Source: a virus
Taxonomy: Duplodnaviria; Heunggongvirae; Uroviricota; Caudoviricetes
Length of the DNA stretch: 64,000 nucleotides
IMG/VR virus record: IMGVR_UViG_2724679539_000005
Span: 1-64,000 of that record
Reading direction: 5' to 3' (one strand)
Position numbers and translations under genes: made by a program. The notes under the pieces are model-generated. The model saw nothing but the letters and a program-made list of their open reading frames with translations, searched no databases and was not told the DNA's origin. This document shows positions 3,912 through 36,214 of the stretch, in pieces. Each line of letters starts with the position of its first letter. Positions within the stretch are counted from its first letter, which is position 1.

Positions 3912-4086
3912 GCCAACAGGAACACCACAACCACAAAAACGCTACAAAGATGCCCACGGAGCACTCGTTACTGTCGAAAGCGTGTCTCACAACCGAGTGA
4001 CGTTTTATCGCGACGGGTATCAATCGCCATGCGTACAACCGCTGGCACGTTTCATGAAGGAGTTCGCGGAGGTTAACAAATGCTAA
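3904..4086 (+). CDS. Hypothetical small protein
   Basis: 60-aa ORF coupled to the upstream gene. Confidence 0.3.
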   Translation: MSKPTGTPQPQKRYKDAHGALVTVESVSHNRVTFYRDGYQSPCVQPLARFMKEFAEVNKC

Positions 4087-4604
4087 CCGTCCAGAAGAAG
4101 ACATTTTCACTGGCAGGTATGTCGCCAAAATCCAGCAATATGACGGCAAAGTCAGGCATTAATACAGCAGATACAAGCAAAGTTTATCATTTGCTGGTGG
4201 TCGGAACGGATGCCTTAACCATACCAGAAATCTCGGGCGATGATATTAGCATTGAGAAGGTCAGCGGCTATGCCAGAGAATTTCTGGTCGTAGATGGCTT
4301 TCTCTGCTCGTGTAGTGACTCCACAAAAACCTTCGTCCACGCGCGTGACGTTAACGAAATGAGCGCGATGTACTGTGCTTCTGGTTCTTCCAATAGTGAG
4401 TTTTCGGAGTCCATAAAAAAGAGCTTGCCGTTATGCGGCAACACGGTTTATGGTTATAAGGCACCTCATAAAACGGGTGCCGGGATTGGCGTCCTGAAAA
4501 TTCTGAAGGCGACATATGACGCGCCGAGCGTCTTTTTTTATGTCGTAGGTCTGACTCACCCATTTTTTGGGCGTTGGTGTATAATCCAGCGCCTTTGTCA
4601 ATCA

Positions 4605-4690
4605 ATGGTGGCTCAGGCGGGGGCTTCTTCGGAAGCGCCGGTATCCTTCAGAGCCGGTTACGCCAACCCTGTCTGGGCTACCACCAGCGA
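4605..4690 (+). ncRNA. C4/CI-like antisense RNA (P1 C4, P4 CI type), copy A
   Basis: GGGCTTCTTCGGAAGCGCCGG hairpin with UUCG loop and CCGGTTACGCCAACC shared exactly with copy B at 32687; loop CCTTCAGA is complementary to TCTGAAGG in the RBS of the ORF at 4742. Confidence 0.5.
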
Positions 4691-4741
4691 AATTGGCGTT
4701 TCCGGTGGTAGCGTAACCTGCTATCTGAAGGAGGCTGCCAC

Positions 4742-4936
4742 ATGCTGGCTACTACCCCTACCCAAAAACCGCAATTTATCTGGATTATCGCCGCAGTTCG
4801 CCGCGATTGCCCGACAATTACCGCCAAAATTCATCATATTGCTGCCGAGTCTGAACGCGATGCTCGCCGTTCTCTGGTGCGCGATCACGTCTGCTTTTTT
4901 GCTGGTCGTATCCGCATGGAGGTGGCACATGATTAA
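4742..4936 (+). CDS. Hypothetical small protein, first gene after the antisense RNA
   Basis: Strong SD GAAGGAGG before ATG; SD overlaps predicted antisense target. Confidence 0.45.
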   Translation: MLATTPTQKPQFIWIIAAVRRDCPTITAKIHHIAAESERDARRSLVRDHVCFFAGRIRMEVAHD

Positions 4937-5147
4937 AACCTACGATGTGCATATGGATCCCCTCGAACGCACAAGCCAGATCATCACACTGACAGAAGTG
5001 ATTAACGACATTCTGGTGAGCAACTCTCCCTCACGAGACGAAAGACTGAAGGCGTTACTCGCGATATTGGATCTCGCCGTTCGTGACGTTCATTTCCTGC
5101 TGGAAGGTGGCGAAATGCCAGGAAAAACGGGGGCAACCAATGAATAA
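4929..5147 (+). CDS. Hypothetical small protein (72 aa)
   Basis: Internal ATG with GGAGGTGG SD inside a dubious 355-aa ORF. Confidence 0.35.
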   Translation: MIKTYDVHMDPLERTSQIITLTEVINDILVSNSPSRDERLKALLAILDLAVRDVHFLLEGGEMPGKTGATNE

Positions 5148-19381: not shown

Positions 19382-20542
19382 TTACCTCGCATTTAAGTAA
19401 ACTACGTTCTCCTCTTGTGCCGTATTTGTGCCATTGCGACTTATAATCGCATCGATTTTGCTCGCGTGCTCGGTGAGATGCCCAGCTGAAAGGTGGGCGT
19501 ATCTTTGAACCATTTCGAGAGTTTCCCATCCTCCCATCTCTTTAAGTGCAAGAAGAGAGACACCGGACTGAACCAGCCAGCTTGCCCAGGTATGCCTCAG
19601 GTCATGGAAGCGGAAGTTGCTAATGCCTGCCCGCTTTAACGCTCCCTTCCATGCCTTGTTGCTGTCGGTTCTCATCTTCCTTACCGCTGCTGTTTTTGTT
19701 CCGTCGCTTCGGTAGGCAGGTTTGGTGTGGACAAATACCCATCTCTTATGGAGCCCCTGCTGTTTTCTTAATATCTGGCATGCGGTTTCGTTAAGAGGAA
19801 CTCCGATCGCATTGCCAGCTTTTGTTTCATCAGGGTGCATCCATGCCATTTTCTTATCCAGATCGACCTGTGACCACTCAAGGTCTGTAACGTTGGAACG
19901 ACGAAGGCCTGTCGTGATTGCAAACATGACCACAGGGAAGAAATGAGGAGCAATTTCTGCAAACAGGCGCTTCGATTCCTCCTCTGTAAGCCATCTGATT
20001 CGTCCATTCTTAACGCGTGGTGTTGATATTTTGGGCGCCCTGTCAAGCCATCCCCATTCAACAGCCATATTGAGAATAGCGCGAAGTATTGCCAGATGCC
20101 GCGTCTTCGTTCCTTTGCTTGCCAGCTTTGGTTTATACTCCGGCACTGGCTTGCCAAGCCGCAAACACCTATCCCGGCTCATCTCCCAGTTCAGGCGATG
20201 GCGGCGGTTTTCCATCCCGTCTACCGCCTCCATTATTTTTTCTGTTGTTATGTCAGAGAGAATGGTTTCTCTGAAGTGCAACATCCAGAACGATATAATG
20301 CTCTTGTCATCATCAATGGACTTCTTATCCGATTTCTCACGCAGCCACCGTATGCAGGCTTCCTTGAATAGCTTTTTCGGTGATTCCCCGAGATTTTTTA
20401 CTCTCCACGCTTCTGCTTTCAGACGATCGTGAAGTTCTTGCGCTTGCCTCTTGTCCGATGTTTCAAGAGAGCGTCTAACTCTTGATCCATCTGGCGCGAC
20501 GAAATCGCAGTGCCATGTGCCACCGCGCAGTTTGATTGACAT
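19382..20542 (-). CDS. int: Phage integrase (tyrosine recombinase, lambda family)
   Basis: 386 aa; catalytic HDLRHTWAS and LEMVQRYAHL motifs. Confidence 0.9.
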   Translation of the reverse strand: MSIKLRGGTWHCDFVAPDGSRVRRSLETSDKRQAQELHDRLKAEAWRVKNLGESPKKLFKEACIRWLREKSDKKSIDDDKSIISFWMLHFRETILSDITTEKIMEAVDGMENRRHRLNWEMSRDRCLRLGKPVPEYKPKLASKGTKTRHLAILRAILNMAVEWGWLDRAPKISTPRVKNGRIRWLTEEESKRLFAEIAPHFFPVVMFAITTGLRRSNVTDLEWSQVDLDKKMAWMHPDETKAGNAIGVPLNETACQILRKQQGLHKRWVFVHTKPAYRSDGTKTAAVRKMRTDSNKAWKGALKRAGISNFRFHDLRHTWASWLVQSGVSLLALKEMGGWETLEMVQRYAHLSAGHLTEHASKIDAIISRNGTNTAQEENVVYLNAR

Positions 20543-26750: not shown

Positions 26751-27443
26751 TTATCCATGTTTCCTGTATGTTTGCGGCATGCTCCCAATAACTTTCCCGA
26801 AGATAAACACCCGGTTCATCTCGTCTTTCTCGATTGGGTCCCACGGTGAGTAGCTCTTGTTATCAGAGATAACCAGCAGTTTATCCTTCATCATTTGCAG
26901 GCGCTTAACATGGGCTGTGTCGTCATACAGAAACGCATAGATACCATCACCGTCGAAAGATTTAACAGTGATATCAACGAACAGAAGATCACCTGGTTCG
27001 ATCGTTCCTGACATGCTGTCACCGCGTACGTTAATGATGCGGATATTTTCTGCCTTCCTGCCATCGAACATGTGACGAGCATCGTCAAACGAGTACTCAA
27101 CCGAGCGTAGAACTTCTACAAACTCACGGTTGATGACTCCCGGCCCGGCACTCACTTCTATATCAAGAACGTCAATCTTGAAGTATTTGGGATGGTTGGC
27201 AGCAGGCTTCCCTGATTGTTGACCGTCATTTCTCATCGGGCCTATGCCTGATGAGAGCCACTCTGTTCGAACACCCAATGCATTAGCTATTTCAACAATT
27301 TTTGTTGAGCCGCGTGCGTTGCCGCTTGTCAGTCTCCAGATTGTGGGTTGAGCTACGCCAGACGCCTTTGCAAGAGCGCCTTGAGACATTCCAGATTGTT
27401 CCATCGCTAGGTTTAAGCGATCAGCAAGAGTTTCTTTTTTCAT
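26751..27443 (-). CDS. cI: CI-like prophage repressor (HTH plus S24 peptidase domain)
   Basis: N-terminal HTH MSQGALAKASGVAQPTIWRL, C-terminal LexA-like domain; ATG at 27443 preferred over track TTG at 27479. Confidence 0.85.
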   Translation of the reverse strand: MKKETLADRLNLAMEQSGMSQGALAKASGVAQPTIWRLTSGNARGSTKIVEIANALGVRTEWLSSGIGPMRNDGQQSGKPAANHPKYFKIDVLDIEVSAGPGVINREFVEVLRSVEYSFDDARHMFDGRKAENIRIINVRGDSMSGTIEPGDLLFVDITVKSFDGDGIYAFLYDDTAHVKRLQMMKDKLLVISDNKSYSPWDPIEKDEMNRVFIFGKVIGSMPQTYRKHG

Positions 27444-27547
27444 AAGTTTTAATTTATACGCTTGCGTATTGATGGTCAAAACACGTTTTGCTATTGATTG
27501 GGTTAATACGCATTGCTATTATCCATTCATTGTAATACCAATAGGAA
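27444..27547. promoter_or_regulatory. Putative OR/PRM/PR operator-promoter region
   Basis: Divergent cI/cro intergenic with repeated TTGCTATTGAT / TACGCATTGCTATT motifs. Confidence 0.5.
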
Positions 27548-30719: not shown

Positions 30720-32138
30720 TTAGAAAATAATGTTTGCTATATCCGAGATAGCATTTAAAGAACCTCTGTGGTCACTTCCTGTTTTAGGTAAAATATAGGA
30801 ATATCGAGGGTCTTCATTATATGTTAACTTCCAGTGTTTTCCATCGCTTGACGCACTGAAACCTAAGTCCTTTAAATTTCTTTGTGTTGCGCTATCCATG
30901 CTTCTGTAACCTGTTAAAGTCCTTTTAAGTAATTGGCGGCGACTCTCGGTTTCTTTATTGTATTCATTATTGGCAATTAGGGATGATAAGATATGGTAGC
31001 TTCTACCAAATTCATTTTTATTTTTTATGGCAGTTTTTAGCGCGTCAATAATTATATTTTTGATTTCTCCATCAAAAAAATCAGTCTCTTCACCAGCATT
31101 AAGCACAATGCTTCCTTGGGCTGAAGCTTGTGATTGAAGAGTGCGTACTCTGTGCTCTAAAGAGGAGATCTTATGCTTAAGATCTTCTATTTGGTCATCT
31201 TTCGCAACATTATCGGCTTCGTAAAGCGCCATCAGTTCGCGTGTGTATTCTCCTCTTTCTTTGAGTGAGTTAATAGAGTCTTTCGTTTTTCTGGTTTGTA
31301 TCTCACTCCATCCACTATCTGAGACAGGAGCCATTGTAGTCGTAGCTCTTACAACATCATCAAATAACTCATCTTCAAATTCTTTTGCGGTTTTCTCACC
31401 ACGGCGATAAAAACTGATATTTTGACCCCGTGGCCAATAGATACCAACAGCACCAGCATAGGCATTTTTAGCATTTGTCTCATTTTTTAGCTTAATAGAA
31501 AATAGTCTATTGCTAGGCTCAATTAATACATGTGCTAATCCGCATACCTTTCTTGCAAGGCGTTCTGGGATGATATTGTGAGCATGTTCATTAAAAAAAT
31601 ACTTGGAGCTAACGTATATTATTGGTAGTCTGTTGTCAGTTTCACCATTTATAACTTTAGCTGCTATATTTAAATGTTCATCAGTATCATCTAAGGAATG
31701 AGGTTCGACTGACACCTTGAAAATATCATCAAGACCACCAGAAAATTTATCAATCAATCTCATAACAACTAATGGTTTCTTAGGTTGCGGGGCTAGATAA
31801 GCTGCATCTTGGCTTACAACGCTAGATTCCACCTGAATCCACATGGTATCAGTTTTGAGATTTTTATTAATTGAAATATCTGTTACCCATTTGTGTGGCT
31901 CAGATATTTTCGAATACCTAAAACAGCCTAAACTAGTATCTTTGTTTTTATAAGTTATTATATCAATTCTTTCATTTTTAGACTCTATGAAGTACTCCTC
32001 GCTTTTATAATCACATACTAATTGTGCTGGAATAAAAGTTGTATGTGGTGAGTCGTTTACCCAAGAAAAACATTCATTAAAGATCTCAGCTAGAGATGTG
32101 GAGTTTGAAACATAAAAACCAGTTGAGAAATATTTCAT
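30720..32138 (-). CDS. Hypothetical protein (472 aa), AT-rich moron
   Basis: Long ORF with coiled-coil-like C-terminal half; no recognisable motif. Confidence 0.65.
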   Translation of the reverse strand: MKYFSTGFYVSNSTSLAEIFNECFSWVNDSPHTTFIPAQLVCDYKSEEYFIESKNERIDIITYKNKDTSLGCFRYSKISEPHKWVTDISINKNLKTDTMWIQVESSVVSQDAAYLAPQPKKPLVVMRLIDKFSGGLDDIFKVSVEPHSLDDTDEHLNIAAKVINGETDNRLPIIYVSSKYFFNEHAHNIIPERLARKVCGLAHVLIEPSNRLFSIKLKNETNAKNAYAGAVGIYWPRGQNISFYRRGEKTAKEFEDELFDDVVRATTTMAPVSDSGWSEIQTRKTKDSINSLKERGEYTRELMALYEADNVAKDDQIEDLKHKISSLEHRVRTLQSQASAQGSIVLNAGEETDFFDGEIKNIIIDALKTAIKNKNEFGRSYHILSSLIANNEYNKETESRRQLLKRTLTGYRSMDSATQRNLKDLGFSASSDGKHWKLTYNEDPRYSYILPKTGSDHRGSLNAISDIANIIF

Positions 32139-32242
32139 GAAATTTCCTTATTAAAAATGAGATTAATCTCATTGGCTATGATAATTGTTACCCTCCTTTG
32201 GATCTAGTGTTCATTTGACATAAGAACCTATTGATTCATCAT

Positions 32243-32386
32243 AATCAACTCGCCATAATCATGTCATCGGAGCCTAAAAAACTCCGGTGACTTCTGCGCT
32301 AAACGGGGACGTTTATGCGCACACACAATCCAAACTCTCATCTCCATTCACAGATGCAGAAATGCACCTACGATTTTTTACATTCG
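32243..32386 (+). repeat. Direct repeat copy 1 (about 140 bp, about 90 percent identical to copy at 34177-34317)
   Basis: Alignable by eye: AATCAAC..GCCATAATCATG..AACTCCGGTGACTTCTGCGCTAAACGGGGACGTTTATGCGCACA..CGATTTTTT. Confidence 0.75.
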
Positions 32387-32669
32387 GTGTTTTACTTCGA
32401 CAGCCAGAATTGGGAGTCTCTATTCGTCTGGCGGCTAAAGGTGATATGGAAATCGTTATGTTTTGGCCTGAGGTAGTTGTAACTGTTGTAGCAGCTATGG
32501 CTGTGATCATCATGGTGTCCATTTACTGGGGTTGACGACATGATTTATCCGGCGCTATATTCTGTGCGTTGCCGCAAAATCGGCACACGGGATTGGCGTC
32601 CCGGGATACTACTCAACGCATACCGCGTTAAGCGGTTTTTTTGTGCGCTAAGCACGGCTATGCCCAAAT

Positions 32670-32755
32670 TATGGTGGGCTGTGTGAGGGCTTCTTCGGAA
32701 GCGCCGGGTTTGAGTAGCCGGTTACGCCAACCTTACACAGTTCACCACCAGTCGA
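32670..32755 (+). ncRNA. C4/CI-like antisense RNA, copy B
   Basis: Same conserved scaffold as copy A; loop TTGAGTAG is complementary to CTACTCAA at codons 2-4 of the ant gene. Confidence 0.5.
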
Positions 32756-32798
32756 TTGGCGTCGTTGGTGGTGATGGTTAACCTGATGAGGTGATACT

Positions 32799-33407
32799 AT
32801 GACTACTCAATTAGCATTCCACAAAACGACGTTTACCCCGATTTGCCACAATAACAGAATTTGGCTTACTGCCACTGAAGTTGGTTTAGCACTGGAATAT
32901 GCGGACGATAAAGCAGTTCAGCGCATTTACTCTCGGCACTCAGATGAATTCACAGATATGATGACAAGGGTGGTCAAAGTGACCACCCCTCGTGGAATGC
33001 AGGAGTCTCGAGTATTTAGCCTTCGCGGAGCCCATTTGATCGCCATGTTTGCTCGTACTCCTGTGGCCAAAGAATTCCGCCGCTGGGTTCTGGATATTCT
33101 CGATCGAGAAGTTCAACAATCCCCAATCACAAAACAATTCACTGATAACGAACTTTGCACACTCGCCTGGTTATGGCGAGCAAGTGATACGATGTTAACC
33201 GCCTGCCAGAACGTTACGCCCCTTCTTCAGGTCGCAGAGCATCGCGAAGCAGGTAGATTCACTTCAATCGAACAAGAATATCCTCGGATACTCAACAGGG
33301 CGCGAGAAATCCTTGCCAGAGAAACGGCGCATGTAAAATTCCAACCGTGGCAGGATGATAAGTGGAGTCGTGTGTTACCATATTTCCGTCAGAATCTGTT
33401 GCAATAA
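32799..33407 (+). CDS. ant: Phage antirepressor (Bro-N/Ant family)
   Basis: N-terminal NRIWLTATEVGLALEY region typical of Bro-N; directly downstream of C4-like RNA as in P1 immI. Confidence 0.65.
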   Translation: MTTQLAFHKTTFTPICHNNRIWLTATEVGLALEYADDKAVQRIYSRHSDEFTDMMTRVVKVTTPRGMQESRVFSLRGAHLIAMFARTPVAKEFRRWVLDILDREVQQSPITKQFTDNELCTLAWLWRASDTMLTACQNVTPLLQVAEHREAGRFTSIEQEYPRILNRAREILARETAHVKFQPWQDDKWSRVLPYFRQNLLQ

Positions 33408-33642: not shown

Positions 33643-34152
33643 ATGATGTGGAACTTTGACAGTGCCGACTTAAGTGCAATAGCAGCAGGCATTTCTGCGT
33701 TTGGCACATTAGCCGCAGCGGGGTCGGCGCTTGCAAGTTGGTACACGTCAAAAAAAGCGCTGCAGCTACAAAATAGAGTTTACCTTTATGAGTCTTTAAA
33801 GGCTTGCGCTGAGAGAGCCAATTCATCAGCTAAAGATAAGCGCGGATCTGAATGGAGCGTTAATGATGCAGCGGATATCATCAGGTGCCTAGTACGGGCG
33901 ATGGAGATCATCAAGCAGGATAGCCAGCAGAAAGAAGGTAATCAGGCATTAATGTTGAAACAGTACTTTGTTAATCTGCTAATAATGGAACTGTACGAGG
34001 AAGTTCATAACGGTGATGCGGCTGATTCTGTTTTTAAAAGTACGGAACCTACACAAGTACTTGATAACTTATGGAGCAAATGGCAGGAGGCTATAGCTTT
34101 TTTTGATATTTGGAATTACCCAGTTGCGACTGAGGAAGACTTGGCAGACTAA
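33643..34152 (+). CDS. Hypothetical protein (169 aa), AT-rich
   Basis: ORF inside repeat-flanked cassette. Confidence 0.45.
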   Translation: MMWNFDSADLSAIAAGISAFGTLAAAGSALASWYTSKKALQLQNRVYLYESLKACAERANSSAKDKRGSEWSVNDAADIIRCLVRAMEIIKQDSQQKEGNQALMLKQYFVNLLIMELYEEVHNGDAADSVFKSTEPTQVLDNLWSKWQEAIAFFDIWNYPVATEEDLAD

Positions 34153-34176
34153 TTTTCAGCACATTTGATTTCCAAT

Positions 34177-34317
34177 AATCAACCAGCCATAATCATGCCA
34201 TTGGAGCTTGAACAACTCCGGTGACTTCTGCGCTAAACGGGGACGTTTATGCGCACATACAATCCAAACTCTCTTCTCCCTTCACAGATGCAGAGATGCA
34301 CCTGCGATTTTTTGCAT
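34177..34317 (+). repeat. Direct repeat copy 2, immediately upstream of ninB
   Basis: See copy 1. Confidence 0.75.
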
Positions 34318-34346
34318 CCAGCGTTTGACCTCTGCGGAGGTGAAGC

Positions 34347-35821: not shown

Positions 35822-36214
35822 TTGTGGAGTAAGTTGATGCGTGATATTCAGATGGTTCTTGAGCGTTGGGGAGCGTGGGCGGCTAATAATCATGAAGATG
35901 TGACCTGGTCGTCCATTGCCGCCGGTTTTAAGGGATTAATTACTTCAAAAGTAAAATCTCGCCCGCAATGTTGTGACGATGACGCGATGATCATTTGCGG
36001 GTGCATGGCCCGTCTGAAAAAGAACAACAGCGATTTGCATGATTTATTGGTGGACTATTATGTCGGCGGCATGACTTTTATGGCGCTTGCACGTAAGCAT
36101 GGGCGATCTGATTGTTGGGTTGGCAGGATGCTCCAGAAAGCTGAGGGCGTAGTGGAGGGTATGCTGATGGTGTTGGATCTCCGATTGGAGATGGATGCTG
36201 ATTGTTCGAAATAA
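35822..36214 (+). CDS. Q: Antitermination protein Q (non-lambda Q family)
   Basis: Position after rusA, Cys/His-rich; alternative start 35837. Confidence 0.55.

Follow-up and report, generated by a model that had tools for sequence, protein, structure and literature searches.

The C4/IsrK family of antisense RNAs is already known through its members in phages P1 and P4 and in the lambdoid prophage Gifsy-1, with IsrK corresponding by structure to P4 seqA, and C4 to CI (PMC3632133, Barquist et al.; PMC4825925); such systems have also been noted in lambdoid prophages (PMC3632133). In Gifsy-1, the isrK promoter transcribes anrP without translation (PMC4825925, Hershko-Shalev et al. 2016), fusions without IsrK in trans giving 280 units for transcription and 4 units for translation. 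When IsrK was supplied in trans, translation increased 139-fold and the transcriptional fusion 8-fold, and compensatory mutations showed that IsrK pairs with the C4-like region (G28/C162 and G31/C159), over which the processed and stable RNA STnc1160 is found (PMC4825925). In lysogens, transcription of both IsrK and STnc1160 is high whatever the condition tested. Here, we analyse a cassette in a 64,000-nt stretch of DNA, referred to as the window (positions 1 to 64,000 of the IMG/VR record IMGVR_UViG_2724679539_000005), in which a C4 antisense RNA, named copy B (32667-32752), precedes ant (32799-33407), an antirepressor gene of a lambda-like E. coli prophage; a second C4 RNA, copy A, lies in a neighbouring element. 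It has homologous counterparts in Gifsy-1 (isrK-STnc1160-anrP), in phage VT2-Sakai (the ant cassette), in P1 (c4-icd-ant) and in P4 (seqA-CI-seqC). We propose, with a probability of about 0.7, that region 32532-33407 is a self-contained C4/CI-family antisense RNA cassette which would silence the prophage antirepressor during lysogeny and be relieved by a leader decoy. The features of the two cassettes, the int-alpA RNA and the ORFs described below are on the plus strand unless stated otherwise.

Copy B is a member of the described C4/IsrK family. It matches the Rfam C4 antisense RNA model RF01695 with 74.8 bits, compared with a gathering score of 45, and the alignment spans model positions 1-87 of 87 with no non-canonical pair flagged. 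The minimum free energy (MFE) fold computed independently for C4-B alone (-42.9 kcal/mol, z = -5.9) agrees with the family fold, a long basal stem being formed around two hairpins and a single-stranded junction. A CCA directly follows the 3' side of this stem, a sequence correlate of the release of C4 RNAs from a precursor by processing, with RNase P at the 5' end. Two scaffold strings are common to the two copies, namely, GGGCTTCTTCGGAAGCGCCGG (32687-32707 in copy B, 4621-4641 in copy A) and CCGGTTACGCCAACC (32718-32732 and 4654-4668, respectively). Their basal stems differ in sequence, but pairing is complete in both according to Rfam.

Two short segments of C4-B each have a complement both upstream and downstream on the same predicted transcript. 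We named these sites after the annotated P1 record, with a', a1 and a2 for the constant contact and b', b1 and b2 for the variable one. The variable specificity loop b' is the 10-nt GUUUGAGUAG (32708-32717), with an 8-nt pairing core, UUGAGUAG (32710-32717), complementary to CTACTCAA; this target (32803-32810) begins at the second base of ant codon 2 (ATG at 32799) and takes in codons 3 and 4. The 202-residue product of ant carries a Bro-N domain and a P22AR C-terminal domain (Pfam PF02498 and PF10548) and belongs to PHROG anti-repressor families. This downstream target, b2 (CUACUCAA, +5 to +12), lies within the ribosome footprint, and the Shine-Dalgarno (SD) sequence GAGG (32788-32791, 7 nt before the ATG) is left free. 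The upstream target, b1, is again CUACUCAA (32609-32616) and lies inside an IsrK-like RNA; most other loop classes share its relative position, -92. In the window, CTACTCAA occurs three times: at the loop itself (minus strand), at the ant site and at 32609-32616; the only two plus-strand copies of the loop complement in 64 kb thus flank C4-B, within 100 nt. By a rough estimate of our own, the chance of an 8-mer from a 10-nt loop recurring in both 100-nt flanks is about 2e-5. The b'-b2 duplex comprises 8 base pairs (about -10 kcal/mol), and the b'-b1 duplex reaches about -12 kcal/mol. As for the constant contact, a' (ACGCCAA, 32724-32730), located in the unpaired junction, is complementary to UUGGCGU displayed in hairpin loops on either side of C4-B, upstream in a1 (32593-32599, loop of leader hairpin 2) and downstream in a2 (32756-32762). 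By our indexing of the Gifsy-1 compensatory mutants, G28 and G31 fall in the a1 motif, and C162 and C159 in the a' motif.

The IsrK-like leader RNA (32570-32642), counterpart of P4 seqA and P1 a1b1, is found just upstream of C4-B and matches Rfam isrK (RF01394) with 58.7 bits for a gathering score of 50. It comprises a pair of hairpins, an unpaired stretch and an intrinsic terminator (32622-32642) located between b1 and C4-B; no terminator-like site was found between C4-B and ant. The Rfam model c4-a1b1 (RF03163, 'a1, b1 targets of C4 antisense RNA') aligns at 32555-32607 with an E-value of 1.3e-8, its 39.6 bits being below the cut-off of 46.7. A single promoter-like site was found for the cassette, of sigma-70 type (32532-32561), with a -35 box TTGACG (32532-32537), an 18-nt spacer and a -10 box TATATT (32556-32561), and the predicted transcription start is near 32568-32570. 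The pattern TTGAC(G/A)-18-TATATT is kept in Gifsy-1, VT2-Sakai and further loop classes. Directly after C4-B, the a2 hairpin (32742-32774) displays a2 in its loop and is conserved: RNAalifold, applied to 77 distinct leaders, gives 11 pairs, each paired in 67 to 77 of the 77, several with compensatory changes. The six bases of its 5' arm (32742-32747) are also part of the 3' strand of the C4 basal stem (32731-32747), so the C4 fold and the a2 hairpin are mutually exclusive, and the choice between them in the precursor could constitute a processing-dependent switch. The same overlap is seen in P1.

The original prediction had placed a second C4-like RNA at 32670-32810, with scaffold strings common to both copies and a loop complement at codons 2-4 of a Bro-N antirepressor, and these features are all recovered here; the Infernal-type scan that it suggested returns both copies as full-length RF01695 matches above the gathering score. 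Its account of the circuit is upheld in essence, but half of the system had escaped it, namely, the upstream b1 site, the a'/a1/a2 contact of constant sequence and, for the leader, both promoter and terminator.

In order to judge specificity, we searched IMG/VR, together with a single genome for each GTDB species, for loci with the constant scaffold. The GTDB genome scan yielded 120 stretches, of which 68 (from Streptomyces, Acidobacteria and similar) lacked the a2 motif and were dropped as chance matches in GC-rich DNA, leaving 52. Among the 31 loop classes from IMG/VR, the longest exact complement downstream of the locus averages 8.45 nt for its own loop versus 4.22 nt for foreign loops, and foreign-loop matches of at least 8 nt occur in less than 1% of pairs, nearly all between near-identical loops. 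Both sources together give 49 classes; a b2 match of 8 nt or longer is seen in 43 of them and a b1 match of this length in 30, and the sites occupy fixed positions. The nearest scaffold relative of copy B, L070, illustrates how the three sites are altered in concert, with TCAAAACGA as b1, AUUUCGUUUUGA as loop and TCAAAACGA again as b2. Within the copy B class, all 12 members retain b1 and ATGACTACTCAA, including one which harbours a different Ant allele past codon 4. Furthermore, codon 2 of ant is ACT in these 12 members, and ACA or ACC in the 15 MTTQ-start loci (out of 15) of other classes. The family-wide co-variation, taken together with this within-class codon signature, indicates that the loop-target pairing is under selection rather than due to chance. 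Specificity was assessed here by exact complementarity and co-variation; RNAduplex energies with long C4 'core' segments gave similar values for own and foreign targets and were discarded, as the procedure invents bulged pairings and ignores intramolecular structure. The VT2-Sakai loop UCGGUUUC pairs over 7 base pairs with its b1 GAGACCG once G-U pairs are allowed, which implies that exact-match counts underestimate pairing in some classes.

The position of b2 relative to the start codon could be placed in 46 of the 49 classes, and it falls on the translation start region in every one of them. It covers the SD region (-23 to -7) in 43 of these 46, a figure that includes five classes whose b2 holds an ATG misread as a start; one of them, L009, was inspected and has its true start further downstream and b2 on the SD, and the other four were judged from context. 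In L114, b2 ends at -2, and in L199 (Lelliottia) it overlaps the AUG. Only in the copy B class is b2 located wholly inside the coding region, and the pairing of its specificity loop just past the start codon, not on the ribosome-binding site, is the sole uncommon trait of copy B. This coding-region b2, the synonymous-codon signature and the 49-class co-variation table are the new elements of the present work. Pairing of a small RNA within the first five codons can reportedly block initiation (Bouvier et al. 2008).

Family membership, anatomy, complementarity, co-variation and context are established in the present work. The mechanism that we favour relies on the homologues for transcription and processing, for repression and for the action of the leader as a decoy, and can be outlined as follows. 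Transcripts would start near 32568 from the sigma-70 promoter, and most of them would stop at the intrinsic terminator, giving an IsrK-like RNA of about 73 nt, with C4 and ant being carried on read-through transcripts. C4 would then adopt a long stem resembling a tRNA, CCA lying on its 3' side, and would be excised from the precursor, as in P1 and P4. Once free, C4 would establish two contacts, its junction a' kissing the a2 hairpin loop UUGGCG (32756-32762) in the ant leader, and the core of its variable loop pairing with b2 at ant codons 2-4. As a consequence, 30S binding would be blocked and no Ant produced, and the loss of translation may permit premature termination too; we propose a block at the 30S step because b2 is within the ribosome footprint. 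The IsrK-like RNA, harbouring a1 and b1, would hold the same C4 surfaces, either in cis, when part of a read-through transcript, or as a decoy acting in trans. An increase in leader RNA relative to C4 would release Ant, which in turn would inactivate the CI-type repressor and induce the prophage. In such a circuit, the 8-nt loop would define the specificity class, copy A representing a different, orthogonal class over an Icd-like gene.

Several points weigh against this scheme. The copy B locus is characterised here by its sequence, and the target of Ant is assumed. The b'-b2 duplex is short and, unlike in 45 of the 46 classes in which b2 was placed, leaves the SD uncovered, so the strength of repression is uncertain. 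In addition, the Gifsy-1 authors invoke an mRNA structural switch and the translation of orf45, and constitutive STnc1160 left IsrK toxicity unrelieved (PMC4825925), which means that, in the lambdoid relatives, a C4 repressor acting in trans is a hypothesis.

A first alternative is that the main mechanism is a positive control of the Gifsy-1 type, in which the C4-like stretch would act chiefly in cis, within an inactive mRNA fold involving a1 and b1 of the leader, and the short IsrK-like RNA would open this fold in trans. Ribosomes would then translate a 36-codon open reading frame (ORF, 32671-32781), the counterpart of Gifsy-1 orf45, and gain access to ant through coupling, so that the match of the loop with codons 2-4 would be secondary. 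Gifsy-1 genetics (PMC4825925) speaks for it, as do the conservation at copy B of the leader, the terminator and the AUG in the C4 5' strand at which the ORF starts, and the location of its stop codon 18 nt before ant. However, the length of this ORF varies across loop classes, its frame differs past the loop, one class has a stop at codon 15 and another has no AUG. Such lack of conservation argues against a protein role, and the ORF is probably not a conserved protein, but its translation could matter in some members. Moreover, such a control does not account for the fact that b2, located on the cargo SD or beside it, co-varies with the loop in 43 of 49 classes; even in Gifsy-1, the complement of the loop (AUCACCG) is adjacent to the anrP SD. 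We consequently consider this explanation unlikely.

A control of the P4 type, in which C4 pairing at both sites would mainly result in premature transcription termination, with ant mRNA not being made and any translation block being incidental, appears improbable. The P4 CI RNA is reported to act in this way through seqA and seqC, in the P4 literature as cited in PMC4825925, an intrinsic terminator is present between b1 and C4-B, and the 8-fold effect of Gifsy-1 IsrK on the transcriptional fusion would fit as well. Against it, transcription in Gifsy-1 is already active when translation is near zero, and the effect of IsrK is by far larger on translation (PMC4825925); b2 is located on the translation start region in all placeable classes, and the stretch between C4-B and ant yielded no terminator-like site.

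The co-residence of two copies raises the question of cross-talk. The satellite status implied in the original prediction for the element carrying copy A is putative. This element, from the beginning of the window to about 19.4 kb, is a P4-like integrative island, with an integrase, an int-alpA RNA (1276-1343, RF02996, 46.7 bits) after this P4-type integrase, an AntA-type gene, copy A, the Icd-like gene and a P4-type primase (Zn-ribbon/Toprim/DUF5906). It directly precedes the integrase gene of the lambdoid prophage (19382-20542, minus strand), the two mobile elements being adjacent, and in a related genome it adjoins tRNA-Thr and proA. Copy A comprises an isrK-like leader (4461-4538, Rfam isrK 67.8 bits) with a1 at 4486-4492 and b1 TCTGAAGG at 4502-4509, and a full-length C4 RNA (4601-4688, 79.9 bits) with loop UAUCCUUCAGAG at 4642-4653 and a' at 4660-4666. 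Its target and cargo (4724-4936) consist of b2 TCTGAAGGA (4724-4732), on the SD, and the Icd-like gene (4742-4936), which matches NCBIfam NF033153 with 71.7 bits, a model that also matches P1 Icd. Pfam and PHROG assignments for 4743-4932 were rejected as being in the wrong frame. The P1 cargo is thus divided between the two copies of the window: the P4-like island has c4-icd, and the lambdoid prophage c4-ant.

Also on the island, a 355-residue ORF (4080-5147), annotated by PGAP as 'ash family protein', matches Pfam Phage_ASH (PF10554) over residues 124-232 only, and this stretch (especially 4449-4775) corresponds exactly to isrK-A, C4-A and the leader, where PHROG 'transcriptional repressor' families match too. 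The ORF continues across the icd-like gene in another frame, then into the next gene in frame. Phage_ASH gave no match against ORF fragments over copy B, and the RNA region of copy B holds no such ORF or Pfam match. The ash protein family may have been built on a translated RNA locus.

With regard to the relation between the two copies, they have the same constant 7-nt a sites and the same C4 hairpin 1. Their variable sites, by contrast, are orthogonal, own loop-target matches being 8 nt long and cross matches at most 5 nt in target windows. This result, together with the family-wide co-variation, is in line with the original prediction that each copy is tuned to its own target. An inter-element cross-talk or defence, in which the prophage copy would serve to disturb the P4-like element or to be detected by it, or with the roles exchanged, via the common scaffold and a sites, has been raised as an idea for Salmonella lambdoid prophages (PMC3632133). 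It could draw on the identical a', a1/a2 and hairpin 1, as well as on a 7-nt match, GGCUACU, between the B loop extended by two stem bases and codons 2-4 of the copy A icd-like gene, a pairing that requires stem opening. Nevertheless, the same hairpin 1 variant is also present in the unrelated loci L070, L023 and L095, the same cassette is widespread in phages and genomes, and the comparison of sites provided no positive evidence of an interaction between the copies. Furthermore, recognised P4 capsid-hijacking genes are absent from the island among those examined, and P4 helpers are P2-like. Cross-talk as the main function of the cassette therefore seems highly improbable. Lastly, the possibility of a decaying RNA copy with a coincidental 8-nt match to ant, to which the shortness of the match and the c4-a1b1 score under the gathering cut-off might lend themselves, is negligible in view of the full-length, high-scoring C4 and isrK matches, the retention of both targets with the matching synonymous codon in 12 of 12 class members, the family-wide loop-target co-variation and the identical cassette in a deposited complete phage genome.

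The latter genome belongs to Escherichia phage PhiR26_1 (recorded host, E. coli K-12 MG1655), in which 93% of the 1.3-kb cassette region (1,206 nt, including the entire cassette) is 100% identical. The region is covered to at least 80% in 135 of 5426 complete genomes, and the cassette is near-identical in 135 complete E. coli genomes. In the two records inspected, NZ_CP150019.1 and PhiR26_1, no RNA feature is annotated at the cassette. The lambda-like E. coli prophage carrying copy B displays the order int (19382-20542), exo/bet, kil, CI-like repressor (26751-27479), CII, O, P, Ren, cassette, ninB/ybcN, rusA and Q (35822-36214), the cassette being located in the nin region between ren and ninB. 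The CI-like repressor, with a C-terminal UmuD-like match, is a plausible target of Ant. Two 168-nt direct repeats (left 32231-32398, right 34165-34332), 87% identical and 1934 nt apart, enclose the isrK-C4-ant-orf169 module, the right copy directly preceding ninB/ybcN. This arrangement suggests a recombination-borne moron cassette. The repeat sequence is present in other lambdoid phages, at two places in most records listed. The last gene of the module, a 169-residue ORF (33643-34152) downstream of ant, matches PHROG 1779 (function unknown) over its full length, with no Pfam, NCBIfam or PADLOC match. Between ren and the cassette, a 472-residue ORF (30720-32138, minus strand) harbours no Pfam domain and shows a weak PADLOC match to HEC-07 (E-value 1e-9); it occupies the site of PD-lambda-1 in PhiR26_1, consistent with a hotspot of defence genes.

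If the circuit operates as we propose, the cassette probably sets a second, SOS-independent gate on the induction of this lambda-like E. coli prophage. The same cassette precedes ant in many Shiga-toxin (Stx) phages, with more than 100 Stx phage records matching it, yet in the records examined it is unannotated or mis-called as protein, as exemplified by orf34 in VT2-Sakai, the absence of an RNA feature in RefSeq and the 'ash family protein' over copy A. The 49 loop classes, in which loop, upstream site and downstream site change together, provide on one scaffold a natural collection of 8-10-nt specificities that are mutually orthogonal, of use in predicting prophage heteroimmunity and as parts for synthetic regulation. 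Two further ideas are, even taken together, quite doubtful. First, as the a-site kissing loops are identical in the two co-resident elements, the P4-like island might respond to the leader/C4 balance of the lambdoid prophage, and vice versa, which would couple antirepressor release in one to Icd-like expression in the other. Second, the copy B class might set its specificity inside the coding region; if true, this would be a distinct way of setting C4 immunity specificity, with the SD left free and the specificity encoded, through the pairing at codons 2-4, in the choice of synonymous codons within the cargo.

Compared with the known systems, the P4 seqA-CI RNA (seqB)-seqC arrangement involves a processed RNA acting on sites either side of itself, as proposed for C4-B. 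However, the P4 system is reported to terminate transcription upstream of replication genes (alpha primase), whereas the cargo of copy B is an antirepressor in a lambdoid prophage possessing O and P; copy A, on its P4-like island with a P4-type primase, is the closer P4 counterpart. The P1/P7 immI locus (c4-icd-ant1/2) belongs to the same Rfam C4 family and shares with copy B the site order a1, b1, C4, a2, b2, with b' as a hairpin loop, a' as a junction and a2 immediately after C4, in a hairpin overlapping the C4 3' end. In P1, b2 covers the icd SD and ant is reached by coupling; in copy B, only 46 nt separate C4-B from the ant ATG, there is no Icd-like ORF in this gap, and b2 is inside ant. 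The Icd-like gene of the window is carried by copy A. The a site also differs, being UUGACAG in P1 (a' CUGUCAA) and UUGGCGU in copy B, a C1 operator is present on one of the two P1 immI promoters, and P1 Ant1 gives no significant BLASTP alignment with the Ant described here (best E-value 11). The qualification of the circuit as P1 immI-like in the original prediction is thus appropriate for the a1-b1/C4/a2-b2 layout of the mechanism, but not for the cargo, given the lack of icd, the unrelated Ant and the location of b2 away from the SD.

The orf34-ant-roi region of VT2-Sakai resembles copy B in its location in the nin region and in its succession of promoter, leader, C4 and a2 hairpin, followed by a gene described as 'similar to antirepressor of P22'. 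Its C4 region (L246, 1905-2078) has been called as the protein orf34 and the RNA is unannotated. The VT2-Sakai cassette differs by its loop class (UCGGUUUC), by a b2 (GAAACC) at -22 to -17, and by an Ant sharing with that of copy B the C-terminal P22AR_C domain alone (24%).

The comparison with Salmonella isrK, also suggested at the outset, identifies Gifsy-1 isrK-orf45/STnc1160-anrP as the closest characterised relative, with the same cassette layout. Both loci lie in lambdoid prophages, and both harbour the conserved promoter, an IsrK leader with its terminator, a C4 RNA downstream (69 bits with Rfam in Gifsy-1, L124, 34131-34214, where it is unannotated in the deposited record), an a2 hairpin and an antirepressor-type gene with an MTTQ start, with no icd between. 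The architecture of IsrK and terminator upstream of an antirepressor-type gene is thus present in copy B. The two differ, however, in several respects: isrJ follows anrP in Gifsy-1, whereas the Rfam scan found no isrJ match in the window; the similarity between AnrP and the Ant described here is restricted to about 59 N-terminal residues (37%, E-value 0.003); and the Gifsy-1 cassette is located just downstream of Q, that of copy B between ren and ninB. Finally, the Gifsy-1 loop UCGGUGAU has its complement next to the anrP SD, whereas the target of the copy B loop lies within codons 2-4 of ant.

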